Positions 7,584 to 36,083 of a DNA stretch of 52,427 bases are shown in pieces. Each line of letters opens with the position of its first letter. The first letter of the stretch is position 1. The notes under the pieces were generated by a model. It saw only the letters and a list, made by a program, of their open reading frames with translations. It had not been told where the DNA came from and did not search any database. The position numbers and the translations under genes are program-made. Source of the stretch: a virus. Its lineage: Duplodnaviria; Caudoviricetes. Location of the stretch: positions 1 through 52,427 of the IMG/VR virus record IMGVR_UViG_3300038678_000203, one strand, 5' to 3'.

Positions 7584-7602
7584 TCAAATCGTATATACTG
7601 TA

Positions 7603-9139: not shown

Positions 9140-9140
9140 G

Positions 9141-9527: not shown

Positions 9528-9530
9528 GGC

Positions 9531-13130: not shown

Positions 13131-13134
13131 CTCA

Positions 13135-15278: not shown

Positions 15279-15698
15279 CTACCTATATTTTACGTTTGAT
15301 ATTACAATATCAAAAGTTCGAGTTATGTCAGTATCTCCCGTTGTAGATTCAACGCCATCAGTTGTAAACTCCACATTCTTTAGAACATGAACTACTGGTT
15401 TCTGAGGGTTGCCAAATACTATAACAATATCGAACATAGGAATCTGAAGCAGCGATCCGTTAGGAGCCGCATCTCTCAAAGCCTCTACATCATTCATCGA
15501 AATATCCAGCGAACCGGATGAATCAATCGGACCTTTTCCTCGGCTTACAGGTCGGTTTCCCGTACCCATATTATTGGTTTTATCCTGCTCTTCAGTGTAA
15601 TTGATAGAGTTTATACCGGAAAGAGGCACGCCTAATACAACGGCTTCTATCTGAGTATAATCGTATGCTCTTCCATTTATTAATGGTGCTGCTGCCAT
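15279..15698 (-). CDS. Tail tube protein
   Basis: LINGRAYD, GI.SINY.E.Q, G.G..PVSRG.G and FDI motifs; follows sheath. Confidence 0.85.
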   Translation of the reverse strand: MAAAPLINGRAYDYTQIEAVVLGVPLSGINSINYTEEQDKTNNMGTGNRPVSRGKGPIDSSGSLDISMNDVEALRDAAPNGSLLQIPMFDIVIVFGNPQKPVVHVLKNVEFTTDGVESTTGDTDITRTFDIVISNVKYR

Positions 15699-15702: not shown

Positions 15703-17280
15703 TTAACTTATTGATACGGCAAAGCCGATGTTAACAGTAATTAATCTTGCTACTCCTACAGGAACTATCTGAATAGTCAATGTAATAGTCGAAGTCGTTA
15801 CAACATCTTGATCGGGATCAATCAGCACTGAATTGGCTGGTAGTTCACCGTCAGGATTAGTATTGATTTCAGCATTAGTAGCCATATTTTCAAGCGCTTT
15901 GAAAGCATCGTTCTTGAAATCTTCAATAGTTCCAGTTGATAATTTACCAGTTGAAGCGTCTACATAAAGAGGGCTGTTTATTTTGTTGATAAGATTTTCT
16001 CTTACCAAGCGCACAGCCTTATCAATAGTTCGATTATTCGCAAGATAAGCGAAATCACTAGTTACTAAAGTAGCGGTCGGATCGTCACTGTAAAACGAAC
16101 CAGTTACGCCTGTTTCTTTAGTCAGGTAAATATATCCCTGATTAGTTAAAGTCGTAAGTGTAACCGCGCTCTGAACGTCCCATGCTTCACCAGTTGCAAA
16201 TTGCAGAGTATCATACTCATTAAATGGAGTTGTCTGAACTACAACTGAAGCAGATCGAGAATGTATCTGATCAAATTTATTTCTCCAACCGATATTCTCA
16301 TGAACTGATGCATTGGCAGCCGATCCAAGAGCGGCACCTAAGCAAGTCATAGAAAATCCATTCACACCAACCATACGTCCACCTTCGCCTCCTTTATCCT
16401 CACCTATCACTACGCTTACATTTTTAGAGTCTAATGCCCTCATGTCTGCAAGTGCAGCTAATGTAGTAGCTGAAAAATCAGCTCCTAGTAATACTGATAA
16501 AGGATTATCATCAGTTTCAACAGCAGTTGCTCCGGTTTGAGAAGCAGTTACCTGACTAGATGCGAAAGTATCCGGCAAGAAAACTCCCATCTGGCGAATA
16601 TCACCACTGGCAAAATCCTGAACTAATCCGATCTGAGTTCCATCATAAGAGGCGTAAATACCTATATATAGAATTCCTTGTGCAAGCCCCGATATATTCT
16701 CAGCTTCAGCGAAAAACTCTGATACATGATAATGATTAATAGCAACTTCTGATCCTACACCAGATGTAAACTGTGTTTCGGTATCTGTTCCCGCACCTGA
16801 TGAGGCAGAAACTAATCCGGCAGCATTGAGAGAAACTCCATATTTTGCCGGTGCAATTATTAAAGCACTAGAAGGAACTGCATTAGTAGATGTAAATCCA
16901 TGATTTACAGTCTCAAGGTTAATAGCGTTGAATATTCCCGTTGCTATTGTTACTGTAGTATCTGCGGTTACTTCCGTGTAAGTACATAAAGTTATAGCAC
17001 TACCTCCCGCTGGAGTTATAGTAACTGTCCAAACATCACCAGCAGCTCCGGCAGCAGATATTAAAATATTCCCTCCTGTTGCTACTGTTTCATCTGAATG
17101 AGTTTCGACAATACCTAAAGCCTCAGCTTCAGCAAGTGTTGTAACTTTCTTTATCCTATCAGAAGAACCGAATCCTGAAGGAAGAGCAGTTTGGCTAAAT
17201 ATCAATCCTGATATATAATCCTCACCAGGCTGCTGCCTTCCAAGTCCTCCGCCTCCTCTAACAAATGTTATTTTTCCCAT
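15703..17280 (-). CDS. Tail sheath protein (DUF2586-like)
   Basis: GGLGR......ISGL, NRTIDKAVR and IVPVGVAR.I.VNIGF motifs. Confidence 0.85.
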   Translation of the reverse strand: MGKITFVRGGGGLGRQQPGEDYISGLIFSQTALPSGFGSSDRIKKVTTLAEAEALGIVETHSDETVATGGNILISAAGAAGDVWTVTITPAGGSAITLCTYTEVTADTTVTIATGIFNAINLETVNHGFTSTNAVPSSALIIAPAKYGVSLNAAGLVSASSGAGTDTETQFTSGVGSEVAINHYHVSEFFAEAENISGLAQGILYIGIYASYDGTQIGLVQDFASGDIRQMGVFLPDTFASSQVTASQTGATAVETDDNPLSVLLGADFSATTLAALADMRALDSKNVSVVIGEDKGGEGGRMVGVNGFSMTCLGAALGSAANASVHENIGWRNKFDQIHSRSASVVVQTTPFNEYDTLQFATGEAWDVQSAVTLTTLTNQGYIYLTKETGVTGSFYSDDPTATLVTSDFAYLANNRTIDKAVRLVRENLINKINSPLYVDASTGKLSTGTIEDFKNDAFKALENMATNAEINTNPDGELPANSVLIDPDQDVVTTSTITLTIQIVPVGVARLITVNIGFAVSIS

Positions 17281-17552: not shown

Positions 17553-18497
17553 TTAAGCATTGTCCTCAACAAGTGTGAAGATACCTTTTTGATCAGTTCT
17601 GTCAAATGTAGCACCAAATCGAACTACTGAAGAAAGAAGTGTTCCACCTAAATATTCAGGCTTACCTCGCTCAATGAAAGTAGCTGCATGACCTTCAGCA
17701 TGACGAACCATAGATGCATGCCAAAAAATAGCGGCAGCATTATCAGTTGCGGAAATTACTTCATCAACAGTACGCTTAATAGGTAAGCTAGCTTCAGAAT
17801 ACATAACACCAGTTGAACCAATATCGTTATTTCTCATCAGCAGATTAAAACCTGCAATAAAAGCAATCTCGCCGTTGATAAGTTTAGAAAGTTCACCGGT
17901 TTTGTCAGCATCGACAAATTTATCAAGCTTCATTAAGTCGTCAACCATCTCAGGAGTGAGCAATCCGAAAATAGAATTACGTCCTAAGTTAGGAAGATTC
18001 ATTTTGTTGAATTGCTTTCTTATATTCAGCATGTCATTAACTGCGATACCCTTTCTGTTTCCAGTGGTGTCAGTTACGACAGAGGCACGAGTTGAGCCAG
18101 TTGTCTGAGCAATATTACCCGTTAAAGTAGCTCCCCAGTTGGTTGCTGCAATATTACCGGCGCGTGTATTGATCGACTGAGCAAGCGAACTTGCAACATC
18201 TGTCATCTTATTATAATTCAATACAATAGATTCCTCTCTGCGAATCAATTGAGGTTGTGTATAAAGCTGCTCAACAGGATAAGACTTAAGGCTATCTTCT
18301 CTTGCGGTAATCTGCAAAGGAAGTACAGTTGGGTCACCAGATGAAGCGGCTCCTATGTCTCCTGCAATTGGAATTTCCACGTTCTCAACATCAATCGCGA
18401 TGCCTCCTTCAGTGCGAGACTTCTTGTAAAATGAATTATCAGGGAAAAGCTCCTTTTGAAACTCCTTTGAAAATTTTATTGGACTAATTTGTGCCAT
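17553..18497 (-). CDS. Major capsid protein
   Basis: 314 aa; LFPDNSF, V.IP.AG and G.I..IAGF motifs; follows the protease. Confidence 0.8.
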   Translation of the reverse strand: MAQISPIKFSKEFQKELFPDNSFYKKSRTEGGIAIDVENVEIPIAGDIGAASSGDPTVLPLQITAREDSLKSYPVEQLYTQPQLIRREESIVLNYNKMTDVASSLAQSINTRAGNIAATNWGATLTGNIAQTTGSTRASVVTDTTGNRKGIAVNDMLNIRKQFNKMNLPNLGRNSIFGLLTPEMVDDLMKLDKFVDADKTGELSKLINGEIAFIAGFNLLMRNNDIGSTGVMYSEASLPIKRTVDEVISATDNAAAIFWHASMVRHAEGHAATFIERGKPEYLGGTLLSSVVRFGATFDRTDQKGIFTLVEDNA

Positions 18498-19117: not shown

Positions 19118-20281
19118 TTAGTCTGCTTTTTCCCAAGCGTTATACATTGCTTCGAATTCCTTTGGGTCCTGCAATTCAATGCGTTTTAATTCATCAGGAT
19201 TGGTCTTGGATAAGTTTTGAAACTTATCAGCAAGCTCTTTCTCCTTCTTATCTCCGGTAACTGACTTCTGATTTATATTTTTGATCAGGTCAATCGCGTT
19301 AGCTTGCGGTATCTGAATCATATCAACCATAGAGTTGAAATTATCAACGCCCATAGATTTACATTGCTCAGTAAGAGATTCCTTGTTTTCCTCAGCGAAT
19401 TTGCCTGAGTCAATAGCTGATTTAACAGCATTTTCAACATCTTTCACTTCAAACTCATCAACTTTCGCTTGTAGTTCAGTGATTTCAGTATCTTTTTCGG
19501 TAACCTGATTCTTAACTTCTGTAAGTTCAGTGTTAAGAGTTTCGACTTTTCCTTCTGCCTCAGTTGCTCGCTTGTCAATATCCTTGATAGCTTTAACCGC
19601 TGAAATTTCCTTAGCATCTTCGCTAAGATTAAGATAACTTAATACTTCTTTCATCTTATTTTCAATTTTTGGATTATTCAAATCGTGGCAAACATTCATA
19701 ATATCTGCCAATGACATATTTTCTTTTATAAGAGGTGTATTCTCTGATTTCTCTACGAAATCTATGAACCCAAATTTCTTAGCCTCCTTGGCTGTCATCC
19801 GAGTATTTTTATTCATTAGTTCTTTAATCTCATCAGATGTTTTGCCACTATTATTAGATAGAATAGTGACAATAGAATCCCTCATTATTGACAAATCTTT
19901 TTTCAATGGCGAATCTTCCATCTCATCCAGAGAAACCCCGTCAACTAAAGGGTTATGAACCATCATAGTTGAGAAGTCGAAAGCTCCTCGATGACCTTTA
20001 TTTCCTGAAGCAAGAATGAATGAACCCGCTGAGTCTGCAACACCTTCATTAAATGTGTGAATTTCAGCGTCCGAAGTTAAATTTGCAGATACAATAGAAA
20101 ATGCATGAACCACAGAGCCACCGATAGTATTTATCCTTTCTTTGATAACTTTGGCTCCCATTTGATTGAGCATATGAATTTCAGCAGCTACTTCTCGTCC
20201 GTCAATCTCCTCACCTACAATGCCATGCAGAAGGATTTCAAATTCACCTTCACTTTTATTTACAAAATACTTCAAATTCAT
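19118..20281 (-). CDS. ClpP-type prohead protease fused to coiled-coil scaffold (start MNLKYF)
   Basis: INTIGGSV, GVADSAGS (catalytic Ser), MMVHNP and A.EAKKFGFID motifs; C-terminal coiled coil. Confidence 0.9.
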   Translation of the reverse strand: MNLKYFVNKSEGEFEILLHGIVGEEIDGREVAAEIHMLNQMGAKVIKERINTIGGSVVHAFSIVSANLTSDAEIHTFNEGVADSAGSFILASGNKGHRGAFDFSTMMVHNPLVDGVSLDEMEDSPLKKDLSIMRDSIVTILSNNSGKTSDEIKELMNKNTRMTAKEAKKFGFIDFVEKSENTPLIKENMSLADIMNVCHDLNNPKIENKMKEVLSYLNLSEDAKEISAVKAIKDIDKRATEAEGKVETLNTELTEVKNQVTEKDTEITELQAKVDEFEVKDVENAVKSAIDSGKFAEENKESLTEQCKSMGVDNFNSMVDMIQIPQANAIDLIKNINQKSVTGDKKEKELADKFQNLSKTNPDELKRIELQDPKEFEAMYNAWEKAD

Positions 20282-20361
20282 AGCATAAAAATAGCTAATA
20301 GAAAGGAGTGGAAAAGGGAAAAGGCGTGGGGATATCCGTCTTGTCAGTAAAAATGAAAACA

Positions 20362-20394
20362 TTTGCATATATTAAAAAGTTTTCATATCTTTGG
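20362..20394 (+). promoter_or_regulatory. Early-type promoter for plus-strand island 1
   Basis: TTTGCATATATTAAAAAGTTTTCATATCTTTGG. Confidence 0.75.
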
Positions 20395-20408
20395 AAAAAC
20401 TTTGAGAT

Positions 20409-20633
20409 ATGAAATACCCAAATAAAATACTAAAAAAAGAACAGGTAGTTTTAAAATCACTAATAGAAAATTTCTTACCTGAAGGTTACGAGCATAGGAA
20501 AAGGGTGATAAACCTTAAGTTGAGTATATTGGAGGAGAAAACTTGTGAAAATTGTAAATACGTTGTATTGAGTATTATTAAAGAACCTTGCCTTTCCTGC
20601 TGGAATAATAATCAATACAAACTCAAAAATTAA
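20409..20633 (+). CDS. Hypothetical protein with Cys motif
   Basis: CENCKY...PCLSC. Confidence 0.65.
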   Translation: MKYPNKILKKEQVVLKSLIENFLPEGYEHRKRVINLKLSILEEKTCENCKYVVLSIIKEPCLSCWNNNQYKLKN

Positions 20634-20644
20634 TATGTTTTGTT

Positions 20645-20821
20645 ATGGTAAAATTTGAATACTTAAGAATTACAACTACTCCTTTAAAAAAGGAAATGGA
20701 AGAATCATGGCTAGACGCTAAAGGAGAAAAAGGGTGGGAATTAGTTTCTGTTGTTCCAATACAAGTTCATATATTTTCATACTGGAAAAATGAATATTAT
20801 TTTAAAAGAAAGTGCAACTAA
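20645..20821 (+). CDS. DUF4177-like small protein, 58 aa, not in ORF track
   Basis: FEY...WL...G.KGWELVSV...YYFKR. Confidence 0.7.
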   Translation: MVKFEYLRITTTPLKKEMEESWLDAKGEKGWELVSVVPIQVHIFSYWKNEYYFKRKCN

Positions 20822-20860
20822 CCCACATTAAATTAATTATTAATCTAAAACTTAGAAAAT

Positions 20861-21058
20861 ATGAACTACGACGAAGCATACCAAGAAATGAAGATTGGCA
20901 AAAAAATAAAGCAAGGAAAATATCTTTATTTTTTAGGCAAAAGCGATAGAAGCGAGCCATATACATTGATTATGAGAATAAATAAACCCCCATTAGTTCG
21001 CAAAGGATTTAAAAAAATTAAAAAACGGGCGATTTTATCATTAACGCTCACCCCCTAA
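20861..21058 (+). CDS. Hypothetical basic protein
   Basis: MNYDEAY..MK.GKKI start; leader AAAACTTAGAAAAT. Confidence 0.55.
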   Translation: MNYDEAYQEMKIGKKIKQGKYLYFLGKSDRSEPYTLIMRINKPPLVRKGFKKIKKRAILSLTLTP

Positions 21059-21191
21059 AATCCCTCCAGATAGTACGCTCCGACAAGTAAAGCTCTTCTG
21101 CCAACTGCCGAACAGCCTCAGTAGATTTAGAAGATGAATTAACTACATCCTTAACATATTCTCTTCTTTTATCAATTTTATTTTTGTTCAT
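21048..21191 (-). CDS. Small HTH DNA-binding protein, 47 aa, not in ORF track
   Basis: AVRQLAEELYLSERTIWRDF; ATGA-coupled to the upstream gene. Confidence 0.75.
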   Translation of the reverse strand: MNKNKIDKRREYVKDVVNSSSKSTEAVRQLAEELYLSERTIWRDFRG

Positions 21192-23452
21192 GGTGTTAAA
21201 TAAAAACCTACTGACAAATCATTTGATATTGGTTGCTTAGTAATAGATTCAAGAATCGGGATTACATTTCCAACCACAGCGTTTAAATCCACTTCAATAA
21301 CACCTGGTAATAGATCAATATTAGCTGCGGTTCCTGACTGATAAACCAATCCAACTCCTTTATTCGGTTGTAGTGTCAATGATCCGGAATAACTAACACT
21401 GTCAGCATCAAAAAAAACTAAATCATACAAATTAACAGTCTGTGGGGAATCTGTCCAATTAGCTATACCTATTACACATTGATCCGCTGTGATTGAACCT
21501 GACACACTTGCATAATGATTTACAAACGTAACTGTTGAGTTTTCCTCCCATCCATTACCGGCTCCCAATTCATTTGCCGTTGTATCCGTCCAATCAGAAA
21601 CACTATGAGGATAGTCATTATAATATCTCTCCATATTAATATTTTGATCAGCAGCATCTTGCGGATTAGCAAAGGTATTTGTATCTGAATCTGAACCTCT
21701 ACCATCAAAATAAAATGTCGGTGAAAATTCATCACAACACCATGTTAAATAATTGTAACCAAAAGCATCTGCATCATTATTTAACATAGTATTTTTATAG
21801 AATTCACAATCTATAGTTCCTGTGCCGAAATGGCCGAAACTTCGATCAACAAATCGCATCCCGTGTCCATACATCCGAACAAATAAATTATCCCTAATAG
21901 TATTAGTGTCGGTTCCATTAAGTAAAATTCCCCTATAATCATCAATAATAGTATTTGAATCTACTAATATACCCCTAGCATCAGTATCTAAATAAATCCC
22001 CTGATGATGAGTCGTACTTCTACAATGAAAAGCATCGTTTGCATATAAGCCATGAGAAGATATATTATTTCTTATAATTTTTTCTACTGTTGTCCCAGGC
22101 GATCCGGAAATGTAATAAGCAGCAGCATCTTGTACGTAAGTTACGTGTCTTGATACATAATTTCCGTACACATAATAAGGTATATTACCATCTCCCTCAG
22201 ACACCCCTTTAATATGTATTCCGTTTCGTCCGCAAGAATCAATTCTGTTTCCAACTATATTAACTTCGCCCTCTGGAAATCTTGACCATATACCATTAAA
22301 GCTAACATCACCATCACCACCTCCGCCTTCGGAAGTTCCTATATTATGAAAATAACAATCAATTACATTCCAAACATCTCCACGTTGATCAATCACTCCC
22401 ATATTGGTTGTATGAAGAATACTGTCATTTGTCAACCATAATTTACTTCCATCATCAGAAAACACACTTACATGATTAAATTTGAATGTACAACTATCAA
22501 AAACTACACTATCGCAATTATAAAGTATCACTCCTGCTGCATTGCCTCCGTGAATTTCAAGTCCAACGAACCTCAATGTATCGCAATTACTAAACCCGAA
22601 TACACTATCATTTACAGATTGAAAAATATTCTCTCCACTAATATCTGTTGGTGAATGAACATAAATATTACCTTCTCTTGCATTGTCGCTAGTGTTTGAT
22701 GCCCACTCATATTTTTGATTAAGATACAATGAGTGGTTATACAAAAACATTTTATAAGTATAAGAAGGATCATTTATTAGACTGTCTGAACCGTCTCCTG
22801 CTGATATTAGATTTGCAATATCAAACTTTGCGTCTGCGCTTGTCCAATCTTGAACTTCAAAAGATTCTGCCCACCAAGGCTCTATTTCCACTTTTCCTGA
22901 TGCTCCGTTGTGATAGTTATTAGGGTGACTTCCTATTAAACTAGAACATTTGAATTTCGTTTTATCACCTATGTCAGTTATTGTAGTGTACACTCCATCT
23001 GCTTGATATCTTCCCATTTCATGGTGATTGCGATTCTGATCCAATAGGAAGCAATAGTTATTTTCAAACCGCTTCCAGCCTCCCCTAGCCTGGTACGGTA
23101 AAAATCTATAATAAGATACATTTAACATAGTATGAGAGAACGTATAAATAGTATCGGCAGTAGACACGTAATTTAAAGTGTCATAAATAGTAATAATTGG
23201 CTTTAATCCTGTTCCATATGCAGCAAAAGTCATATGATGATTATTAACCCAACCAATAGCAACAGAATCAAAAATACCACCTCTCTCAAAATACATTGTA
23301 TCCCTGCCCATCGTTATAGCTTCAGGTCTTGCTTTTGCAGTTCCTGGGGTCAACCCATTAGCACTATTATCGCCGGAGTTACTAACATAATGCTTAGTAG
23401 CCCCTAAGTCGAAACAAATCAATAATAATATGAGTACTTTAATTACTCTCAT
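21188..23452 (-). CDS. Secreted right-handed beta-helix protein (putative polysaccharide depolymerase)
   Basis: Signal peptide; YVSNSGDNSANGLTP, F.RGG.F, AYGTG.KP and GIYLD......V..NTI motifs. Confidence 0.8.
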   Translation of the reverse strand: MRVIKVLILLLICFDLGATKHYVSNSGDNSANGLTPGTAKARPEAITMGRDTMYFERGGIFDSVAIGWVNNHHMTFAAYGTGLKPIITIYDTLNYVSTADTIYTFSHTMLNVSYYRFLPYQARGGWKRFENNYCFLLDQNRNHHEMGRYQADGVYTTITDIGDKTKFKCSSLIGSHPNNYHNGASGKVEIEPWWAESFEVQDWTSADAKFDIANLISAGDGSDSLINDPSYTYKMFLYNHSLYLNQKYEWASNTSDNAREGNIYVHSPTDISGENIFQSVNDSVFGFSNCDTLRFVGLEIHGGNAAGVILYNCDSVVFDSCTFKFNHVSVFSDDGSKLWLTNDSILHTTNMGVIDQRGDVWNVIDCYFHNIGTSEGGGGDGDVSFNGIWSRFPEGEVNIVGNRIDSCGRNGIHIKGVSEGDGNIPYYVYGNYVSRHVTYVQDAAAYYISGSPGTTVEKIIRNNISSHGLYANDAFHCRSTTHHQGIYLDTDARGILVDSNTIIDDYRGILLNGTDTNTIRDNLFVRMYGHGMRFVDRSFGHFGTGTIDCEFYKNTMLNNDADAFGYNYLTWCCDEFSPTFYFDGRGSDSDTNTFANPQDAADQNINMERYYNDYPHSVSDWTDTTANELGAGNGWEENSTVTFVNHYASVSGSITADQCVIGIANWTDSPQTVNLYDLVFFDADSVSYSGSLTLQPNKGVGLVYQSGTAANIDLLPGVIEVDLNAVVGNVIPILESITKQPISNDLSVGFYLTP

Positions 23453-26372
23453 AATTCATCAACCTTTCAATGTTTTTTATCCTATCCTCCAAATTATTCA
23501 CTTTTTCTTCAAGTTTTTTATTTTTAATTTCAAGCTGCTCAATATATCTAAAGGAATGCTCTATACCCCATTGGAGCTTATGAATAACCTTGCTTGGCCC
23601 ACCTCTCATATTATAATCATCAACCAATTTCTTGCCGTCCCAATACCTCCAATACAATTCTTCTAAGCCTGTTCTTGGATCAACTTTTGTATTACTTAAA
23701 TAACTTTCTATCGGTTCAAGATAATCGAATAAACCCCGGCCAGCAGATACAAGGCTGTCACCAAATAAAGCCCCGGTAGGAGAAAGAGCAGCCCATTGGA
23801 TATCCCCTTCGGCATCGATTGCATAGTTTAGGTATACAGAATCACTTGCAAATACTCGCCCTGTTGAATCTATCACAAATTGATCAACTGCATTGCGAGT
23901 TGCAACAAACAAATTACCAGTGGAAGTACTAGCATTTCCTACAGTTATGCCACCTGCGCCTGTAGTAAAGAAAGCATTAAGACAATTTCCCGTTCCTGTC
24001 CCTTGTAAATCAATTCCATTCCCATTTGAACTGTGATTAACTACAATGCCACCTCTATTATTTTGAGCATCGATCACCAATGATCTACCGTTAGTGACAG
24101 TACTTATAATATATAAAGCTGTATCTGCTAACTCATTAGTTAATCTTAATGTATTAAAAGCATATTTCATTCTTGCATTGCCCGCAAATGCCCCAGAATT
24201 ATTATATTGAATTTCTGTATCACTTCCAGCAGGAGTTCCACCACCACCATTCAATAACTCCCAACTTGTCCCATTATGCCAGTATATTGAATCCCGATCA
24301 GAAGGAACGGCCAAATATCCTTTAACAGCATCGCCAGTAAATGCAGAAAATGAAGCTACCGGCTCTATATACTGATATCCTCCAATTCTCTGAACCAATA
24401 CACTTTGATCGGTTACCTTACTTAATATAACAGGAGAACTCGTGCTATTTATAAAAAACTTCATGCCAGTAACTCCGTCATCTGTTATGTAATCACCAGT
24501 GCTGAAAATAGCTTGATTAGTTGCGCCTACATTTAAATTACCTCCTAATGAAGTAGTAGTCCCCGCAGTTGTTATAGCAGCATTAAGAAGTAAAGTTGTA
24601 TTTACATCCGGCATCGTGATAGTCCGAGTATTTCCTGTAGTAATCCCAGATGCATCAAACCCTATTTTTTTTGTGTTATCAGTAACATTACTTATAAAAA
24701 ATGAATTATCAAAAGCTTCTCCACCAGTAATTGCACCTCCGCCAGCAGCACTAGCAGGAAACAAACCTCTTAAATCTTCTACTGACGTCACTGTAAATGT
24801 ACCACTAGAAGTAGTTTGATATCTTATATTAATCTTAGCTATTAAAAAACCTGTTCCTTTGTATTCTGTAGGAATAGTAAATACTGCATAATTACTTAAA
24901 TCTTCTTCTGTAATTTCAGAACCATAAAAACCACTTGGCTTATTAATAAATAATTGACAATCAGCAGAATCTTCACTTACTGAACCCCAAGCTATCAATG
25001 AATAATAAGTGTTATTACTCCTTAATGATGCTCCTGTATTGTCAGTATCGATTGATCCTAAATTAGTTATAATCTCATAAGCCACAGCCTCATCATTAAT
25101 CACATAAGCACTATCAGTACTTTGTAAATCTATTACAGGATATGAATGGGTATGAAGTTGAAGTATTTGCCCTGATGTATGGGAATACTTAATTGTATCA
25201 AGACCCCCTCCATTTGTCCCTACAGAAATAGTAGGTAAAACACCACTCAACCAAGTAGCATTTTGATTCCTAATCCATTCATTTACATGGCTTAAATGAC
25301 CTTGCATATTCGCATCATTCAAGTGATCAGTCCATGCATGCACCTTGTATACTCCATTTACTTGGGCTGAAACAGCACTTTGGACAAATACATCAGCAAC
25401 TGGTACATATTGTTCTGACGTAGGAAAGCTACTTGTTGATACTGTTAAAACCCTAGTGGAATTAGGAATATAAACATAGTTTCGAGTAGGGGAAATATCA
25501 CTGCCAGCTGTAAGATTTATACTATCAGGAATCGAAAACCGGACCGGTAAATTGTCAAAAAACAGAGTTAAAGAATTCACTGAATTAAAAAGCTTCAGCT
25601 GTACATTAGTTCCGTTGCTTGACACTTCTATAATATGACTTTCAATAATTGCCCCGTTAAAAATACTTAGTACATCCCTGGTATTTGTAAGCACATCAAC
25701 TTTTGCATTAATTACACCTAAAGTTGCATGAGTTCTACCACAATGACCTAATTGAACAACCCAAGCAGGAGTAGGAGGCGGAACACTGACATGCTGACCA
25801 TCTATTGTATCCAAATATATAAGGCCTACAGGGCAACCAGTTGTATTTATATTATTAATATCACCCCATAAGGCGACTTCACCAGTATCACTCGCTGTAA
25901 TATCTTCAGTTGCAAACCCTATAGTGCCACGCGCTGTACTATCCCATGCTGCATTCGCAAAATATATATGCCATACCCCATCAGTACTATCAATCCTAAC
26001 AACTTCACCGTCATCAATAGTACCTCCCGTCATATTTATGCCTCGCAACCTTCCCTCACGCCCAACATCAAGGGCAGTACCACTTCTATTATTATACTGA
26101 ACTCGATTCTTTTTTATAGCATCGTAATAGTCCCGCCCTTCCTTCCAAGGGATAGCCGTCTGATCTGTATTGTAATCTATTACTTTTACAGCTACGGTAT
26201 CAGTAAGGATTGTTTTCCCTTCTGCTTTCAAGGTGTTAGGAGTAAATGTATATTCCGGAATATGGTCTACATGAATATTAAAAGAGTCTGTAGAGTTGAC
26301 GTATTCTGTATTAGTCTGACTGCATGCAGCAACCGAAATTAGTAGTAATAAAGGAATAATTATTTTTTTCAT
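23439..26372 (-). CDS. Signal-peptide-bearing fibre protein with S74-like C-terminal chaperone coiled coil
   Basis: 977 aa; GFATEDI...TG.V...G domain, PAGSDTEIQYNNSGAFAG repeat motif and C-terminal coiled coil. Confidence 0.7.
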   Translation of the reverse strand: MKKIIIPLLLLISVAACSQTNTEYVNSTDSFNIHVDHIPEYTFTPNTLKAEGKTILTDTVAVKVIDYNTDQTAIPWKEGRDYYDAIKKNRVQYNNRSGTALDVGREGRLRGINMTGGTIDDGEVVRIDSTDGVWHIYFANAAWDSTARGTIGFATEDITASDTGEVALWGDINNINTTGCPVGLIYLDTIDGQHVSVPPPTPAWVVQLGHCGRTHATLGVINAKVDVLTNTRDVLSIFNGAIIESHIIEVSSNGTNVQLKLFNSVNSLTLFFDNLPVRFSIPDSINLTAGSDISPTRNYVYIPNSTRVLTVSTSSFPTSEQYVPVADVFVQSAVSAQVNGVYKVHAWTDHLNDANMQGHLSHVNEWIRNQNATWLSGVLPTISVGTNGGGLDTIKYSHTSGQILQLHTHSYPVIDLQSTDSAYVINDEAVAYEIITNLGSIDTDNTGASLRSNNTYYSLIAWGSVSEDSADCQLFINKPSGFYGSEITEEDLSNYAVFTIPTEYKGTGFLIAKINIRYQTTSSGTFTVTSVEDLRGLFPASAAGGGAITGGEAFDNSFFISNVTDNTKKIGFDASGITTGNTRTITMPDVNTTLLLNAAITTAGTTTSLGGNLNVGATNQAIFSTGDYITDDGVTGMKFFINSTSSPVILSKVTDQSVLVQRIGGYQYIEPVASFSAFTGDAVKGYLAVPSDRDSIYWHNGTSWELLNGGGGTPAGSDTEIQYNNSGAFAGNARMKYAFNTLRLTNELADTALYIISTVTNGRSLVIDAQNNRGGIVVNHSSNGNGIDLQGTGTGNCLNAFFTTGAGGITVGNASTSTGNLFVATRNAVDQFVIDSTGRVFASDSVYLNYAIDAEGDIQWAALSPTGALFGDSLVSAGRGLFDYLEPIESYLSNTKVDPRTGLEELYWRYWDGKKLVDDYNMRGGPSKVIHKLQWGIEHSFRYIEQLEIKNKKLEEKVNNLEDRIKNIERLMNYESN

Positions 26373-26878
26373 GGTAGTATAACTTTATTTATAGTAATAG
26401 TTACCGGAGCCGCGTCAATATCAGTGCTTACAATAGCCGGTTCTGTTAACATAGTTGTAAACTCCTGCGCCCACACGCGCACATTGTTATTGTTCGATTC
26501 ATCACTTTCACTTGACCTCTGAAGCGGATTGAAATTATCTCCTTCAGTCATTGTCACAGCCCGATATATCAAATCAATATTTACAAGGTCTGTTTCAAAA
26601 GTATCATCATCCGGATTAAGAGAAAATACAGCGTAGTAAATCGTAATTACAACCTCTGAACTTTTTTGCTGCTGAGTTCTATTTTCTTGGTGAGGATGCA
26701 ATTCACTTGCACCCCAGTTTACTGTATTGAGTTGTATCCAAGCTTGAGGAAACCTCTTAGAAACATCTTCCTCATAATCTAAAGTATCCTGCCCGTTATA
26801 ATGCAGAACATTCTCAAGGAATGCCAATGCTTCAAGTTTTGCTTTTATAGCTTGATATATCTCTAGTTTTACGCTCAT
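26369..26878 (-). CDS. Tail completion/terminator (Mu gp37-like)
   Basis: IY.AIK.KL, YNGQ and FP.A.I motifs; follows gpG-like gene. Confidence 0.65.
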   Translation of the reverse strand: MSVKLEIYQAIKAKLEALAFLENVLHYNGQDTLDYEEDVSKRFPQAWIQLNTVNWGASELHPHQENRTQQQKSSEVVITIYYAVFSLNPDDDTFETDLVNIDLIYRAVTMTEGDNFNPLQRSSESDESNNNNVRVWAQEFTTMLTEPAIVSTDIDAAPVTITINKVILP

Positions 26879-27300
26879 TTAAAAACTCCTATTAATAACT
26901 TTTTCAACAGCTTTTTATTTGACTCATCCAAATCTTTAGAATCACCAACAAATTCTCTCTGAGGCATTCCCTTCAATCCTTCATTATGTCTGGCTGCATA
27001 TGCTATGCCTTGTGATCCTATAATTATTTCTTTCCAAGTTGATTTCAGTACTTTAATCGATCTTCGCAGCGCCCCAGTGTCAATTAATATTCCCCGTCCC
27101 TGATTTCTTTTAGCAGTCGTTTGCCTTGCTTGCCATCCTGACTTACTGGCATCAGTCTGTTTTCCACCCTGGCGAAACCCTTTAAGAAAATGATTCAATG
27201 AATTATTCGCCACTTTCTTAGGAGCCGTCCTTTGAAAAACTTTGAACGCTGCCTGAGAGCTACCGAACTGAAATCCTTTTCCTATTCTTTTGATCGCCAT
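26875..27300 (-). CDS. Virion morphogenesis protein (Mu gpG-like)
   Basis: W..R, ILIDTG.LRRSI, YAARHNEG and MPQREFVG motifs. Confidence 0.9.
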   Translation of the reverse strand: MAIKRIGKGFQFGSSQAAFKVFQRTAPKKVANNSLNHFLKGFRQGGKQTDASKSGWQARQTTAKRNQGRGILIDTGALRRSIKVLKSTWKEIIIGSQGIAYAARHNEGLKGMPQREFVGDSKDLDESNKKLLKKLLIGVFK

Positions 27301-28010
27301 CTCAAAGCCCTTTCAAAATCTGGCCCTTCAGCCTTAGTATGTTTAAAATACGGATGTTTATTTTCGTTAAATATATAATCCACTTTTCCGGGATTTACGT
27401 TGAACATTTTATCTGAATTTGCAGGAACCCCTTTCAAGCTACTTTTTCGTCCGCCAGCTAGATTTATCACAGTACAGCGGCAGTTAAATCCATTACTCGG
27501 CATCCTGGTATCCCAAAATGAGTCATTAACCGGGAACGTCAAATTATCCCAATCTGCATGCTCTGGCCTCACCCTTTCATCTGCTGCCGTCTGATACTTA
27601 AGCATCGGAAAATCTTCTTTGTCAGCCTCAAAATCAAGCCACTTATCAGCGTTTTGAGATACTGCAAATGAGGTATCCTGCTCAGTTTTTAACCATACCT
27701 TATTATACTTGTCATTAATATTCTCAGCAAAGCCCCGGAATTCTTTAAATGGTCGCTTGGTACCATCTTCCATGAACACAAAATTATTCAAATCCTTAAC
27801 CTCTTGAAATGTCTTAGCTCCTGAAAATGCTGTTATATTTCCATTATAAGAAGCCATCCGAGCCACTTTAAGATCAGAATCAAGCTCTCCAAATCCTTCT
27901 ATGACAAAAGCCATTATTTCTTCGAATGTGAAAGAACTTAGTTCAGCAGGTAATTTTGATAGTGTTATGCTGCCTGCATATATCCCGGAAAATAATTCTT
28001 CTTCTTCCAT
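27282..28010 (-). CDS. Head morphogenesis protein (Mu gpF / SPP1 gp7-like)
   Basis: WLKTE, Y.TA.DERVRPEH and FW....P.NGFNCRC motifs. Confidence 0.9.
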   Translation of the reverse strand: MEEEELFSGIYAGSITLSKLPAELSSFTFEEIMAFVIEGFGELDSDLKVARMASYNGNITAFSGAKTFQEVKDLNNFVFMEDGTKRPFKEFRGFAENINDKYNKVWLKTEQDTSFAVSQNADKWLDFEADKEDFPMLKYQTAADERVRPEHADWDNLTFPVNDSFWDTRMPSNGFNCRCTVINLAGGRKSSLKGVPANSDKMFNVNPGKVDYIFNENKHPYFKHTKAEGPDFERALRWRSKE

Positions 28011-29138
28011 TTATATGTACTTAACAATCACCCATCCTCTGTTATATGAGGTAGAGTCGAATGTAGCAGTATCAAAATCACCGCTAGTTATTCTGTTTAA
28101 TGATATATTTGCAGACAATACAGTTATATAGCCTCCATTACCAGTTCCCGTTGTCCCTCCATTAAGATCATATTTAGCGGTGTCTAAATCATTTCTAATT
28201 AAGCATTCTACACCAATTATATTAGTATAAGTCAAACCATGAGCGACAGAAACAGAGGGAGTAGCATCCATATCCCAGTCACCGGTAAGTAAGAACTTAT
28301 GTTTTACTCCCCCATCTCTAGCAGCCGCCGAAGCCGGAGTCATATATGTTATAGCATCTGTTCCAATTAAAGCTATGGAATTAGCAGCAGCCCGCTTATC
28401 TGATAATACGCTCCAAGTTGCAGTCCCATCGTTAACAAGAATTATCAATGCTGACTCATCAATTCCAGTCAATACAACTGTAGCGTCAGCTTGAGCAATA
28501 ACAATAGAGCCTTGAGTCCACGCAACATCAATAAATATATATTCATTGTACACAGTTGTATTATCAGGATCAGGAATTGTTATTGTCCAAGTTGCAGCAC
28601 CATTGGCTGTAAACCTTACCCATTTAGTATTATTTCCTATAGTTATATTTGCACTGTTAGAAGATTCTACATCACCAGTAACATACCGTTTTATCTTGTC
28701 GTTAATATGCTCGCCATTCAAAGCATCAAGCTCGGAAACAGATACCGAACCCTGAACTGTTATAGTACCTCTGTTTTGTTCAAGAGTTTGGCGGGGTGTT
28801 GCATCAATGAATGTTTTGTCTCCATCTGCTCTATATGTCACTGTTTTATCAAACGCAAGGAATTCAGTGTCAGAATCAAAAGTTCCAGAATCAGACTCAA
28901 CAATAACTATCTCGTCATTGAGATAAATATATCCGGCAGTCATCGACCATGTATTAGTAGGCGCAGCACCTCCAACAGTTACAACACATCCAGATATAAT
29001 AAAATTAGGATTAGTACCTACTGCAAATGATTTAAACATTGCAAACATAGCATCCCTATTATCGCTTTCAGACCCAAATAATATTTGATCTAATCTTACA
29101 TCAGGCTCACCGCCTGTAAATTGTAGTCTGTTATTCAT
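28011..29138 (-). CDS. Tail fibre protein (baseplate-attached)
   Basis: IISGC....GYIYLN.EI N-terminal module typical of Bacteroidota phage fibres; follows wedge genes. Confidence 0.7.
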   Translation of the reverse strand: MNNRLQFTGGEPDVRLDQILFGSESDNRDAMFAMFKSFAVGTNPNFIISGCVVTVGGAAPTNTWSMTAGYIYLNDEIVIVESDSGTFDSDTEFLAFDKTVTYRADGDKTFIDATPRQTLEQNRGTITVQGSVSVSELDALNGEHINDKIKRYVTGDVESSNSANITIGNNTKWVRFTANGAATWTITIPDPDNTTVYNEYIFIDVAWTQGSIVIAQADATVVLTGIDESALIILVNDGTATWSVLSDKRAAANSIALIGTDAITYMTPASAAARDGGVKHKFLLTGDWDMDATPSVSVAHGLTYTNIIGVECLIRNDLDTAKYDLNGGTTGTGNGGYITVLSANISLNRITSGDFDTATFDSTSYNRGWVIVKYI

Positions 29139-29397
29139 GGTTCTTTATTTTTTCATAAGTCCTTTCAAATATATCAGGTTTACATGGGTAAAACTCTCCC
29201 TTCACTCCTTTTATAATCCAGTCTCCTTTTTTAGCCAAATGATTTCCTTCTAGTGTCTCGATAATAAATGTCTTAGTTCCCATCTCACCAGGCTTCCATT
29301 TAACTAACCCTAACGCTAATATCTGATCAAAGCTTTCTTGACTTCCAATCCACTGCTCAGCATCAATGATTACTGGTTTCTTTCTAAATTTTGCCAT
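29131..29397 (-). CDS. Conserved phage protein (KKPVxIxA...GDWIIKGVKGEFYPCKPDIF)
   Basis: Widely seen non-structural phage family motif. Confidence 0.8.
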   Translation of the reverse strand: MAKFRKKPVIIDAEQWIGSQESFDQILALGLVKWKPGEMGTKTFIIETLEGNHLAKKGDWIIKGVKGEFYPCKPDIFERTYEKIKNHE

Positions 29398-29581
29398 GAT
29401 TTAAAATGTTATGTTTTTGTCTACTATCTCTGTATTTTTCATCCCTACACATACAACAACTACATGGCGATCCATGACTACGAAATGAATAGAAATTACC
29501 TTCTTCACGAGTTAGGTTATAATTTATTAATCTCTTTTTATATTTCAACATTTTAATTTTATGTCTCTCACCTTTATTCAT
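29384..29581 (-). CDS. Small basic protein with PCSCxMC motif
   Basis: 65-aa ORF. Confidence 0.6.
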   Translation of the reverse strand: MNKGERHKIKMLKYKKRLINYNLTREEGNFYSFRSHGSPCSCCMCRDEKYRDSRQKHNILNHGKI

Positions 29582-29584
29582 CCC

Positions 29585-30103
29585 CTAAAAAGTTACAACG
29601 TTCCAATTTTTTGATGCTTTAACATAATTTCTTAACTGAGCTGTCAATAATGCCGACACCGTAATAATAGTTACAGGAATATTAACCGTAAAATTATCGG
29701 CCGTTATTCCTTCACCACTCTGATAGAATGCTATCGGAGCAACTACCACCTCACCACTTTGATAAATCGTGTAAGTAGTTGCGGCAGCTTCGCCACTCTG
29801 ATAGATATTCACAGAGTCAATACCAGCAATATCATTCTCAGTTATAAATATCCTCCTTAGCGTTACATCATAGGTATCATTTAAATACTCTTCAAGTGCT
29901 TTATGTTGCCCTGTATATTTTAAAAAATCAATCGTCTCTGTATTCAATGTTAACAGATCATCTGATATATCCTGAACCGGCGCAATCATAGACCTCAGAT
30001 AAGGAAGTAATTTATGTTCAGTCCCTGAAGCTGTTTCGCGCCAAAACCAAGGAGTTAAATTCTCAACTACATTATCCCAGTCTATATTGAATATGTTAGC
30101 CAT
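29585..30103 (-). CDS. Baseplate wedge protein (gpI/gp48-like position)
   Basis: IDW......L.P, TGQ...LE.YLND.YD and F.VNIP motifs. Confidence 0.7.
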   Translation of the reverse strand: MANIFNIDWDNVVENLTPWFWRETASGTEHKLLPYLRSMIAPVQDISDDLLTLNTETIDFLKYTGQHKALEEYLNDTYDVTLRRIFITENDIAGIDSVNIYQSGEAAATTYTIYQSGEVVVAPIAFYQSGEGITADNFTVNIPVTIITVSALLTAQLRNYVKASKNWNVVTF

Positions 30104-30987
30104 CACCCCGCAGTATAAGTAAGCGTTCCGCTCAGAGGAAAAGCCGGATCAATCAGCATATATCCAGCATTTGCCGTATAAGTCTGAAGGGTCGTAGCAA
30201 GTACATCCAGATAAGAACCTCCATCTGGTTTCCCTTCTATATTCGTAGCAACAGCGTTTTTAACTCCTGTCGCTGCTTGAATAGCATCAGTTAATTTCAT
30301 AACCACCATGTCACCCGCAAAATCATCAGCCTGAAAAGTTTGTAGAAATGCATCTACAGCATCCTCAACAGGAAATGTCGCCGGTGTACTTAACAATGAA
30401 CCATCAGCGGCTAATAACTGCGGATCATATTCAATAGTATATTCACACTTCAGTAAATCTGGATCATTCGAAATAATCGAAATAGAATCACCGGCAAATC
30501 TTTTTTCAGTCCAGTAAGTTGTAAACCCTGCTAATTCAGGAGCAGATAATGGCCCCGCTACACTGGCTGTAATCTTCGCCACTTTAATAACTATTATCCC
30601 ATTAATAATATCAGCCGCTGAAAGATCAACTATCCGGTTATCCGAATCAACAGGGTTGTACGTGAGAATATTACCTATTAAAACTTGAGTATCACCATCG
30701 TCATCAACAAATGTATCTGTCCATACCAAAGCATCACCGAACTGATAAAGCAAGCTCTCTGCTGCATACCACTTCAATACTCCAACAGGGATTTCTAGTC
30801 TGCGCTCTTCAATGTTTTCTGTCTGAACTACAAATAAATCCTCAATAACTTTAATAGCTACAGCACAGATAAAAAATAGTAAATCCCAAATTGCTGTCTG
30901 ACTGGTAGATGTAAGCCCAGCTAATCCTGACTCGGCTTCTTTAGCCGTTACCATTGCAGCTTTTATTTCAGCTATTGTCCTTGCCAT
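30103..30987 (-). CDS. Baseplate J-like wedge protein
   Basis: MARTIAEIK, S.S..AIW, LKWY......YQ.GD, IKVAK and AGY motifs. Confidence 0.75.
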   Translation of the reverse strand: MARTIAEIKAAMVTAKEAESGLAGLTSTSQTAIWDLLFFICAVAIKVIEDLFVVQTENIEERRLEIPVGVLKWYAAESLLYQFGDALVWTDTFVDDDGDTQVLIGNILTYNPVDSDNRIVDLSAADIINGIIVIKVAKITASVAGPLSAPELAGFTTYWTEKRFAGDSISIISNDPDLLKCEYTIEYDPQLLAADGSLLSTPATFPVEDAVDAFLQTFQADDFAGDMVVMKLTDAIQAATGVKNAVATNIEGKPDGGSYLDVLATTLQTYTANAGYMLIDPAFPLSGTLTYTAG

Positions 30988-32275
30988 AAAGCTTGGTTAT
31001 TTTATTCATTACTAAAGACTTATTTTCAGGTTCAGTTATAATAGTCTCATCAATCTCCATTCCTGTTTTCTTTTCTACAGATTCAGCACTTACAGAATAA
31101 CCAGCCTGAGATAATTTCAACACTATCTCAGACCATTCACCAATTGATAATTTCTCTGCATAGTCCCAGCCTCCAAATATTTTTTTGCTTTCAGATATCA
31201 TTCCGATTTTTTTCATCCTTGGGATAAGCATATCGTTAACCACTGACTTTATATCTAGCTTATCAGAAAAAATTAAATCATCAAGTACATTTTCATGAAC
31301 ATTAGCTGATCCGGCGAATGCTTTTTCATCAGTGGTTCCTGTTTGGCTTAAAATTATCTTGCTTATCGCTTGGTCGCACTTTTCGACAAGCGTTCCATAT
31401 ATTTTATGTGGATCAGATGAGCCTTTAGATTCGATAAACTCAACTTGGTCAAGATCATCCATAACTAAATAATCAGCTCCGGTTGCCGCCTCGAAAGCAT
31501 CAATCATGTTTTGCTTTCTTGTTTTATCAGTAAGTGAAGTACGGCCTACTCTCAATGGCATTCCAAAAATAGATGCGTGTTGAGACCAATTGCCAAATAT
31601 TGATTTCCATATAATATAAGGGGCACATTTATTTATTAATCCAAGATCAGTTCTTGAACCTACACGAACTACCCAAGTATTATAAGGATCATCACCAAAG
31701 TAAATTGAATTATCATTACTACCGTGTATGAATGTAGTATTAACATCAATGATCATTGAGTCATAATAAGGTATCTGATTTTCTTCAGGTATTTTTTCCA
31801 CATTGACAAATCGATCATTTACAACACTCCCTAATTGAATAGCTTCCCATCCGTAAAACTTAGAATCCATTACATAGCGCATAAAGTTCCGGAACCAGGG
31901 AAGTGGAAAACCTTGAGGATCGATAAACTTTTTATTTTCTTCTTCATCAATATCACCCGATTCATCCATAATCTTGAAGCTTCCTGATATTGCTTTATTC
32001 GTTCTTGATTGCATTGTAGCAAATAGCTGATAGTCATCAACGAAATCCCTAAAGAACTCCATCAAGCCTTGCCTATCAGGATTGTCAATATCCTCGGCTG
32101 CACTTACGTGAGTTCTCCAATCATCAATCTCTTTAGTAACCCTTTCGAGCTGCTCTTGAATGATCCGGTCAATAGCATTAGCTTGCTGAGGAACTCTCTT
32201 CGTAATATTCTTAAACACATCTAATCTCTCAGCTTTCTTAATTTCCGTGATTTTCTTATCGGTAAGTAATTTCAT
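30968..32275 (-). CDS. Portal protein (DUF935, Mu gp29-like)
   Basis: W.....IFGMPLRVG, ISK.IL.QT.TTD and A.VHE motifs. Confidence 0.9.
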   Translation of the reverse strand: MKLLTDKKITEIKKAERLDVFKNITKRVPQQANAIDRIIQEQLERVTKEIDDWRTHVSAAEDIDNPDRQGLMEFFRDFVDDYQLFATMQSRTNKAISGSFKIMDESGDIDEEENKKFIDPQGFPLPWFRNFMRYVMDSKFYGWEAIQLGSVVNDRFVNVEKIPEENQIPYYDSMIIDVNTTFIHGSNDNSIYFGDDPYNTWVVRVGSRTDLGLINKCAPYIIWKSIFGNWSQHASIFGMPLRVGRTSLTDKTRKQNMIDAFEAATGADYLVMDDLDQVEFIESKGSSDPHKIYGTLVEKCDQAISKIILSQTGTTDEKAFAGSANVHENVLDDLIFSDKLDIKSVVNDMLIPRMKKIGMISESKKIFGGWDYAEKLSIGEWSEIVLKLSQAGYSVSAESVEKKTGMEIDETIITEPENKSLVMNKITKLYGKDNS

Positions 32276-32277
32276 AA

Positions 32278-32994: not shown

Positions 32995-33078
32995 TGTCTT
33001 CAAAGTTACGTAAAAAATATTAAAACAAAGATAGTAAATAATTGATTCATTGGGAGTTGTATTATTTCGTGCTATTTA

Positions 33079-33376: not shown

Positions 33377-33682
33377 ATGGCAAACTTTAAAATAGGACAG
33401 AAAGTTGTTTGTGTTAGAACGCATTCGGCAGGACTTATTAAGAAAGGAATCATCTACATAATAGAAACTATAGTACAATGCCCTTGTGGAAAGACTGTAC
33501 TTAACATTGGAACTAATAATCATACATGTTGTAGTGTTTGCGGACATAGTTTCGGTGGATCATTTTTATGTTCAACCCTCTTCCGCCCTCTCCAACACAA
33601 ATACAACCTAATCAAAAACTCAGAACTCATTGAGGTAATAGAAGAGACTATTGATTCACCTGTTAAAGAGCCGGCTATATGA
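33377..33682 (+). CDS. Hypothetical zinc-binding protein
   Basis: FKIGQKVVC, CPCG and CSVCG motifs. Confidence 0.7.
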   Translation: MANFKIGQKVVCVRTHSAGLIKKGIIYIIETIVQCPCGKTVLNIGTNNHTCCSVCGHSFGGSFLCSTLFRPLQHKYNLIKNSELIEVIEETIDSPVKEPAI

Positions 33683-35998: not shown

Positions 35999-36027
35999 AG
36001 TGTAAAGATAAGAAAAAAGGTTGAATA

Positions 36028-36060: not shown

Positions 36061-36083
36061 GGTGAACTTAAAAATGTGAGGTG

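Follow-up and report, generated by a model that had tools for sequence, protein, structure and literature searches.

Signal peptides on a fibre-like and a beta-helix protein encoded by adjacent late genes of a contractile-tailed phage

The late region of an uncultured contractile-tailed phage, available as an IMG/VR virus record of 52,427 bp (IMGVR_UViG_3300038678_000203; "the window" denotes the whole of this record), encodes two large neighbouring proteins of 977 and 754 amino acids (aa), both of which begin with a signal peptide. We read the pair, with a probability of about 0.5, as exported accessory proteins that are not part of the virion, the 977-aa protein being glycan-binding and the 754-aa protein glycan-degrading. 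This reading draws on what is observed of the two genes and their products, namely conserved signal peptides, the folds, the arrangement of the genes, and the absence of the N-terminal extension, and is favoured because conserved signals for the general secretory (Sec) system coincide with the lack of an N-terminal docking part. A first-pass annotation of the same DNA had given both open reading frames (ORFs) their correct coordinates, lengths, and N-termini, and had proposed that the products are exported, a proposal well supported by canonical n-, h-, and c-regions, short h-regions, and the conservation of the signals in homologues.

Signal peptides and their conservation

Signal peptides were scored with a purpose-written heuristic for n-, h-, and c-regions rather than with SignalP, and this heuristic errs in both directions. 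The 977-aa protein opens with the n-region MKK (charge +2) and an uncharged hydrophobic h-region of 15 residues (residues 4–18), then A-C-S|Q, and the 754-aa protein with the n-region MRVIK (+2) and an h-region of nine residues (residues 6–14), then L-G-A|T. The residue at -1 is small in both. H-regions of this length are too short for a membrane anchor, and a signal-anchor reading was rejected. In the AlphaFold2 (AF2) model of the 977-aa protein a helix at residues 5–13 is followed by a low-confidence linker. Gln at position +1 after cleavage, known as the Q-rule of Bacteroidetes (PMC5837995), is present in the 977-aa protein, with Thr at this position in the 754-aa protein as in most of its relatives (A|T). 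The sequence VAAC of the 977-aa protein also fits the lipobox [LVI][ASTVI][GAS]C, with a Cys by the cleavage site in two of seven aligned N-termini (the window and relative P0002); the Cys of relative P0004 is unaligned and sits in a poor lipobox, and no acidic surface-export motif was seen by eye after the Cys of the 977-aa protein. Sorting domains of the type IX secretion system (T9SS; PF18962, TIGR04183, or TIGR04131) gave no match at E<=0.1 in the two proteins or the seven other signal-bearing proteins of the window. Judged from their sequences, both signals are probably Sec-type export signals. That the true starts might lie downstream had been a concern of the first-pass annotation; the Met that follows is residue 114 in the 977-aa and residue 48 in the 754-aa protein, inside conserved sequence in both cases, and downstream starts are not credible because they would cut into it, leaving no plausible later start that avoids the signals.

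The signals are conserved in relatives of both proteins, and the second concern of the first-pass annotation, that homologues might lack them, is not borne out either. For the 977-aa protein, 26 relatives, with uninformative cluster names, came from 5.8 billion clusters searched by word index, and locus scans with the 12-row alignment A2 (alignment A1 being without a conserved stretch) gave 24 viral loci, one genome locus, and 80 metagenome loci kept out of 131, several of which duplicate viral ones. The genome locus, one in 185,579 species genomes, belongs to an Alphaproteobacteria metagenome-assembled genome, is of the signal-free type, and gives no clue to the host. The first two sets, from the cluster search and the viral loci, comprise 47 distinct family proteins, the window included, 13 of which carry a signal peptide (two after correction to an internal Met start), with Gln at +1 in 9–10 of the 13. 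By comparison, in related loci with a signal-free family member 13 of 380 genes are flagged by the heuristic, and against this background the 13 of 47 correspond to a binomial P of about 4e-9. Among 75 metagenome ORFs with a complete N-terminus six were flagged, three of them convincing by eye (loci L038, L039, and L042). Within the window itself nine of 85 genes are flagged, five of which follow the Q-rule, the 977-aa gene included.

In a core tree of 45 rows, built after removal of three near-duplicates and two short fragments, the window falls in a clade of six members that all bear signals (Shimodaira–Hasegawa-like approximate likelihood ratio test, SH-aLRT, 99), and within this clade the n/h/c layout is kept at 37–69% core identity although the signal sequence varies. 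The signal trait requires seven changes on the tree, at least five of these changes being forced by well-supported branches, and only one of 500 label shuffles reached as few as seven; the signal peptide has therefore been gained or lost repeatedly. Signal-free relatives place an N-terminal extension of ~45–1850 residues ahead of the core, whilst in signal-bearing relatives with domain A (see below) the core begins ~25–110 residues from the (corrected) start. On one conserved core, signal peptide and long N-terminal extension have thus replaced each other repeatedly. The 754-aa protein is remote from all its relatives: HMMER, run exhaustively over 1.84 billion representatives, found 137 of them at E<=0.001, the best being 28% identical, and a signal peptide was found in 109 of these, several of the 28 negatives being truncated or missed by the heuristic.

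These patterns bear on the possibility that the hydrophobic N-termini are not functional, having arisen by chance or from mis-called starts or forming a buried helix, in which case both products would be ordinary tail proteins assembled in the cytoplasm. The signals were scored by an error-prone heuristic alone, and the starts are not checkable by ribosome-binding sites, Bacteroidota genes being without strong ones. However, the persistence of the n/h/c layout in diverging sequences, the recurrence of Gln at +1, the signals of the 109 beta-helix relatives, the enrichment over background, and the lack of an alternative start ahead of conserved sequence make this explanation very improbable.

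Folds of the two proteins

The 977-aa protein matches no Pfam, PHROG, or NCBIfam family. Its AF2 model, built from a 27-row alignment, is confident over residues ~70–535, poor over residues 588–936, and ends in a single helix. The signal peptide and a variable linker of ~40 residues, with no particle-binding domain, precede domain A, of which ~140 residues match PDB entries 5wk1_K, 9kzj, 6qyy_A, and 1yu3 in Foldseek. Domain A folds like capsid decoration proteins (TW1, T1, FCWL1, and Pam3), the base of the phi29 head fibre, and the N-terminal part of Mtd. The sole match among 50,697 phage records is an annotated Pseudomonas phage Rollin tail fiber, part of which is 33.6% identical to residues 98–234. 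BFVD yielded 176 matches (E<=0.001), of which the 50 listed all come from uncultured or unnamed phages; those that bear a name are called intramolecular chaperone, tail fiber-like, or Mtd N-terminal domain proteins. A head-fibre reading, suggested by the decoration-like domain A and the position of the gene in the head/neck module, was not adopted in view of the matches to Mtd and to an annotated tail fiber; it is further weakened by the location of relatives in tail modules, and meets the same signal-peptide problem.

Domain B forms the conserved core, and when modelled separately (residues 225–600) reached a mean predicted local distance difference test score (pLDDT) of 78 and a predicted template modelling score (pTM) of 0.74. 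Its fold matches are weak, and all are to phage fibres, receptor-binding proteins (RBPs), or baseplate proteins (9euj_G, 8kec, 4rgg, 2x53, and 1yu3). An enzyme fold for this domain was rejected, neuraminidase and similar matches having a probability below 0.1. The C-terminal 378 residues are nearly orphan, with three weak matches (E 1e-4 to 3e-4) among the 5.8 billion clusters. The first-pass annotation had described an S74-like chaperone coiled coil at this end. The coiled coil is borne out by the C-terminal AF2 helix, which shares 17 of 49 residues with the tail helix of the S74-bearing relative P0027 in a BLASTP alignment confined to the coiled coil, but the S74 chaperone is not, with no match to Peptidase_S74 (PF13884) at E<=1 in the last 203 residues; relatives P0027 and P0018 match PF13884 at 2.6e-14 and 1.8e-8 respectively. 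A target of a diversity-generating retroelement was also considered and rejected, as the window holds no template/variable direct repeat of at least 40 nt and a partial scan of its ORFs revealed no reverse transcriptase. On the strength of the models, the 977-aa protein reads as fibre- or RBP-like, with a conserved N-terminal core and a variable C-terminal half that probably gives specificity.

The 754-aa protein was called a beta-helix from the outset, and matches the right-handed beta-helix family PF13229 at 48.4 bits, well above the gathering cut-off of 25.9 (E 1.1e-12). In an N-terminal alignment of 13 sequences (the window and 12 relatives), all 12 relatives carry a motif like ATNYYVSNSGSDAANGLT directly after the signal, the window version being GATKHYVSNSGDNSANGLT, and a motif of the YYVS..G.D..G type occurs within the first 90 residues of 79 of the 137 relatives. 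The position of this motif right behind the signal (residue 19–21) leaves no room for a particle-binding domain. The mature protein contains 12 Cys, compared with 0–2 in the capsid, sheath, and portal proteins, which fits an extracytoplasmic, disulfide-bonded protein. No relative was found among the 50,697 phage records. In the top-scoring relatives a Laminin_G_3 lectin domain is inserted between the signal and the helix, and one relative carries a T9SS sorting domain. The 754-aa protein is thus most likely a glycan-cutting enzyme, a putative assignment made from fold and family.

Roles outside and inside the particle

If both proteins are exported accessory proteins, the host Sec system would carry the two late products out of the cytoplasm. 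Sec export leaves the cytoplasm with the protein unfolded, whilst heads and tails assemble inside, and the proteins would therefore not be built into the particle there. The 754-aa protein would act as a disulfide-rich beta-helix enzyme of a normally secreted family, cutting host surface polysaccharide (capsule, exopolysaccharide, or O-antigen) in the envelope whilst infection is under way or, once the cell has lysed, in its surroundings. The 977-aa protein would be a free version of a receptor-binding fibre in which the signal peptide replaces the N-terminal extension; its Gln at +1 would become a pyroglutamate cap in a Bacteroidota host, and it would be soluble, probably a trimer, and bind a glycan on the host surface. 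Pyroglutamate and disulfides would lend stability outside the cell. As neither a T9SS nor a lipoprotein surface signal is present, both proteins would wait in the periplasm until lysis, and their joint role would be to condition the host surface, clearing or masking glycans such that progeny escape and reach new cells. Export and cleavage themselves, the ligand and the substrate, the trimeric state, and the benefit to the phage are what we infer in this scheme.

Signal-bearing genes are also found elsewhere in the window and around relatives of the 977-aa gene. The tail-fibre position of the window, between the baseplate and lysis genes, holds signal-bearing genes only, five in number, with Gln at +1 in four of the five and a Laminin_G_3 domain (PF13385) in the 314-aa product. 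Signal-bearing neighbours of family members occur in L002 (821, 915, and 475 aa), L004 (1365, 200, and 367 aa), L010 (1024, 500, and 124 aa), L024 (961 and 115 aa), and L039 (756 and 1243 aa), and in four signal-bearing viral loci 16 of 95 genes are flagged, compared with the 13 of 380 in signal-free loci. Laminin_G_3 domains are present in two neighbouring partner proteins of other loci, and most neighbours in the window and in L002, L004, L010, and L024 match no PHROG or Pfam family.

Several points weigh against export as free accessory proteins. Of the six metagenome ORFs flagged by the heuristic three are unconvincing, and it missed P0038 and P0029; the cleavage site of the 754-aa protein is atypical, with Leu at -3 and Thr rather than Gln at +1; and there is neither a T9SS signal nor a lipoprotein signal for surface export to account for passage across the outer membrane before lysis. 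The host is a putative member of the Bacteroidota. The first-pass terms receptor-binding and capsule-degrading denote putative roles, derived from the folds. In L024, L004, and L042 the fibre-like gene follows the tape measure and tail-tip genes, the classical tail-fibre position, and in L024, where the cassette also lies ahead of the endolysin gene, it is the only long fibre-like gene seen. Furthermore, no convincing signal-free fibre was identified in the window with Pfam, PHROGs, or the ESM Atlas; a conventional fibre had been proposed at 28011..29138, but this 375-aa product belongs to no Pfam or PHROG family and its Atlas leads are weak (0.80–0.81). The phage may therefore need both proteins on its particle.

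The last points are those that would be expected if the two proteins were true virion RBPs, exported and matured in the periplasm through disulfides and pyroglutamate, and docked on finished tails when the holin opens the inner membrane or after lysis. The fibre/RBP-like fold of the 977-aa protein, the signal-bearing members at the tail-fibre position, ahead of lysis genes, in L024, L004, and L042, the exclusively signal-bearing genes at the tail-fibre position of the window, the lack of a clear signal-free fibre, and the overlap of both genes with late structural genes are all consistent with such a role. However, neither protein has an N-terminal docking part, the motif of the 754-aa protein beginning two residues past the cleavage site, and the 754-aa protein is without a relative in the phage records. 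The tail-fibre region also houses non-structural exported genes, lambda lom and bor among them, and no published tailed phage that attaches exported fibres was found, nor do we know of one. We consider virion docking of these two proteins unlikely, and the suggestion of the first-pass annotation that they join the particle after lysis finds no support in the results, both proteins lacking a particle-binding part. Still less probable, in our view, is the wider proposition that a set of tailed phages, probably of Bacteroidota, routes its RBPs through Sec, matures them in the periplasm, and adds them to complete tails at the holin breach.

A role within the envelope is a further candidate. Here the 977-aa protein would mask or jam the phage's own receptor or the export route of that receptor, the 754-aa protein would trim nascent O-antigen or capsule within the periplasm, and superinfecting phages would as a result be excluded and progeny kept from sticking to debris. 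Substrates of signal peptidase I (SPI) that carry neither a T9SS domain nor a lipoprotein surface signal end up by default in the periplasm, and exported phage exclusion proteins such as T5 Llp provide a precedent, although known exclusion lipoproteins are far smaller than 977 or 754 aa. The role predicted for ORF22 of phage P1312 (PMC4569894), and the proposal that the glycanase WceF acts on its polymer at periplasmic transfer (PMC7949094), point the same way. Against this, the 977-aa family is nearly absent from bacterial genomes, with a single locus in the 185,579 species genomes, and is therefore not a lysogen-protecting gene; additionally, a partial scan of the window ORFs revealed no integrase or repressor. 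Envelope protection is accordingly a doubtful alternative, and export as free accessory proteins is preferred.

To annotation pipelines and host-range predictors, any phage gene of the fibre-like or beta-helix type encodes a virion RBP. Should a recurrent subset be exported as free protein, such phages would be wrongly assigned, and infection would include a stage at which the host surface is conditioned by soluble lectin-like and glycan-cutting proteins. Proteins built for extracellular life would also be attractive as glycan-binding or depolymerase reagents. If fibres were instead added after export, the textbook view of tail assembly would change, with the last step taking place outside the cytoplasm, a step we know of in no tailed phage. 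In either case, the repeated swap of signal peptide and N-terminal extension on one core offers a clean comparative test system.

Genome setting and known systems

The 977-aa and 754-aa genes lie between the tail terminator and the prohead protease (Table 1). The ATG of the 977-aa gene overlaps the stop of the upstream 169-aa ORF (ATGA), and the ATG of the 754-aa gene stands 14 nt ahead of the 977-aa stop. The first-pass annotation had both genes translationally coupled to a neck gene; the start/stop overlaps are as described, and along the chain of 169-, 977-, 754-, and 47-aa ORFs they suggest coupling. The term neck gene was roughly right, as the 169-aa product resembles tail terminators, matching Phage_Mu_Gp37 and Phage_tail_terminator clusters of the ESM Atlas at 0.92–0.94 by features and at template modelling scores (TM) of 0.71–0.75 by structure. 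The 47-aa product looks, by eye, like a small helix-turn-helix protein. Beyond the 754-aa gene, the ~0.8 kb up to the protease (20369..21190) contains small ORFs, most of which run on the opposite strand (74, 58, and 65 aa) and one of which is Cys-rich (CENC...CLSC); these opposite-strand ORFs interrupt the one-directional late region and suggest a module junction.

Table 1. Features of the window, with positions counted from its first letter.
Feature	Position	Strand	Notes
Fibre-like 977-aa ORF	23439..26372	-	Late gene
Signal peptide of 977-aa protein, residues 1-18	26319..26372	-	MKKIIIPLLLLISVAACS|Q; SPI with Gln +1; lipobox-like VAAC too
Domain A, ~residues 60-230, beta-rich	25683..26195	-	pLDDT 74-93; Foldseek PDB probability ~1.0
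Domain B, ~residues 231-600, conserved core	24573..25682	-	Invariant His/Asp/Trp/Arg; alignments A1-A3
Variable C-terminal region, residues 601-925	23598..24572	-	Orphan, beta-rich; pLDDT mostly <50
C-terminal long helix/coiled coil, residues 928-975	23448..23591	-	AF2
Beta-helix 754-aa ORF	21188..23452	-	Late gene
Signal peptide of 754-aa protein, residues 1-18	23399..23452	-	MRVIKVLILLLICFDLGA|T; aligns with signal peptides of relatives
N-terminal family motif of mature 754-aa protein	23333..23398	-	TKHYVSNSGDNSANGLTPGTA; starts 2 residues past predicted cleavage site
Right-handed beta-helix repeats, residues 395-554	21791..22270	-	PF13229, PF05048 (NosD), TIGR03804 repeat
47-aa ORF	21048..21191	-	MNKNKIDKRREY...SERTIWRDFRG; ATG overlaps 754-aa stop (ATGA); below default ORF length cut-off
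169-aa tail-terminator-like gene	26369..26878	-	phrog_6911 (function unknown); ESM Atlas
Five signal-peptide genes (137, 128, 314, 157, 181 aa)	6737..9944	-	Between baseplate and lysis genes
Large terminase	37521..39101
Mu-type portal	30968..32281
Mu F-like	27282..28010
Neck1/tail-completion	26875..27300
ClpP-type protease/scaffold (prohead protease)	19118..20368
Major capsid	17553..18497
Sheath	15703..17280
Tube	15279..15698
Tape measure	13135..14784
Baseplate hub	12156..13163
Endolysin	5130..5615

The record is rated 100% complete and classed as linear. An exact 99-nt direct repeat lies close to both of its ends (21-119 and 52329-52427), which fits a circularly closed or terminally redundant genome. 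No tRNA was found in the window. The nearest cultured relatives of the terminase are ~42–50% identical across about half of the protein and belong to Alistipes, Elizabethkingia, Flavobacterium, Parabacteroides, and Bacteroides phages, with Aggregatibacter phages and a Methanomicrobiales-associated virus also among the relatives. The main pointer to the host is the Q-rule, which five of the nine signal-bearing genes of the window follow; together with the terminase relatives it suggests that the phage probably infects Bacteroidota. The protease/scaffold, used as a query for sister phages, gave just ~30% matches to the ClpP domain.

Gene order is odd over 27282..33003 on the reverse strand, where a head-tail adaptor and the portal are followed by five ORFs of no known function (294, 173, 65, 88, and 375 aa, of which the 294-aa ORF alone matches a PHROG, of unknown function) and then by Mu F, Neck1, and the tail terminator; the neck and terminator genes hence stand upstream of the protease and capsid, before the head genes. 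In the related locus L042 (1188..5398), a signal-bearing member follows a tail-tip set like that of lambda or gene transfer agents, comprising a 145-aa protein that resembles an NlpC/P60 peptidase by eye and a 1257-aa J-like protein, and so occupies the side-tail-fibre position. Elsewhere in the window, 11 overlapping copies of 9/12-nt repeats (GCTGCTGGGGATGCT-like) at 33981..34201 on the forward strand lie within a 182-aa ORF (33679..34227) and would encode a low-complexity stretch rich in Ala, Gly, Trp, and Asp. An inverted repeat of 47 nt, 83% complementary, links two intergenic-looking sites 31 kb apart (4566-4612 and 36027-36073) and may represent a regulatory site common to both. A 143-aa protein with a lipoprotein-like N-terminus (MKNILILTVVILCSC...) is encoded at 40000..40431 on the reverse strand, in the early/replication region and distant from the lysis genes.

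Amongst characterised fibres, domain A and parts of domain B share folds with Mtd of Bordetella phage BPP-1, the RBPs of lactococcal phages 1358 and p2, and the fibre of cyanophage A-1(L), although these matches are weak (TM 0.1–0.25 across the whole query). Mtd and trimeric RBP fibres likewise combine a conserved N-terminal core with a variable C-terminal half; the 977-aa protein differs in having a Sec signal in place of the particle-binding N-terminus, and no C-type lectin tip was found in partial ORF scans. Tailspikes of the P22 and K1F type, and S74-bearing endosialidases, share the beta-helix with the 754-aa protein and the C-terminal coiled coil with the 977-aa protein, and the family members P0018 and P0027 bear S74 as endosialidases do. 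Unlike these tailspikes, both window proteins are without an N-terminal particle-binding domain, the 977-aa protein is without PF13884, and the 754-aa protein has no relative in the phage records.

A likeness in export signal comes from Porphyromonas gingivalis phages, which are reported to carry Q-rule signal-peptide genes of unknown function, considered by the authors an adaptation to the host secretion system (PMC10367356). As in those phages, SPI cleavage is predicted to expose Gln in five proteins of the window; the part of that report drawn on here mentions neither a fibre-like fold nor a paired beta-helix or lectin gene. WceF of Pantoea stewartii is described as a tailspike-like beta-helix glycanase exported by the twin-arginine translocation (Tat) pathway, with a proposed role in trimming polymer at periplasmic transfer or in the biofilm (PMC7949094). 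It resembles the 754-aa protein in combining a right-handed beta-helix with an N-terminal export signal, a likeness of fold and signal alone, and differs in being chromosomal and Tat-exported, the 754-aa protein being phage-encoded with a Sec-type signal that lacks a twin arginine. WceF is not known to carry a capsid adaptor. Phage P1312 is reported to encode a 1096-aa protein predicted to be secreted (PMC4569894), and Lys44 is a Sec-exported phage endolysin which, like signal-arrest-release (SAR) endolysins and spanins, uses host export signals and acts in the envelope (PMC6116005). Exported phage proteins, and Q-rule signals on phage genes of unknown function, are therefore already known from such reports (PMC10367356).

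In the literature searched, no description was found of signal peptides on fibre- or RBP-like phage proteins, although supplementary gene lists may hold such genes, nor of a swap between signal and extension or of a pairing with signal-bearing lectin or beta-helix genes. T5 Llp and lambda Bor and Lom are also exported or membrane-targeted phage proteins. Together with Lys44, SAR endolysins, and spanins, these are lysis or small exclusion proteins, whereas the two proteins described here are very large and have the folds of a fibre and a depolymerase.

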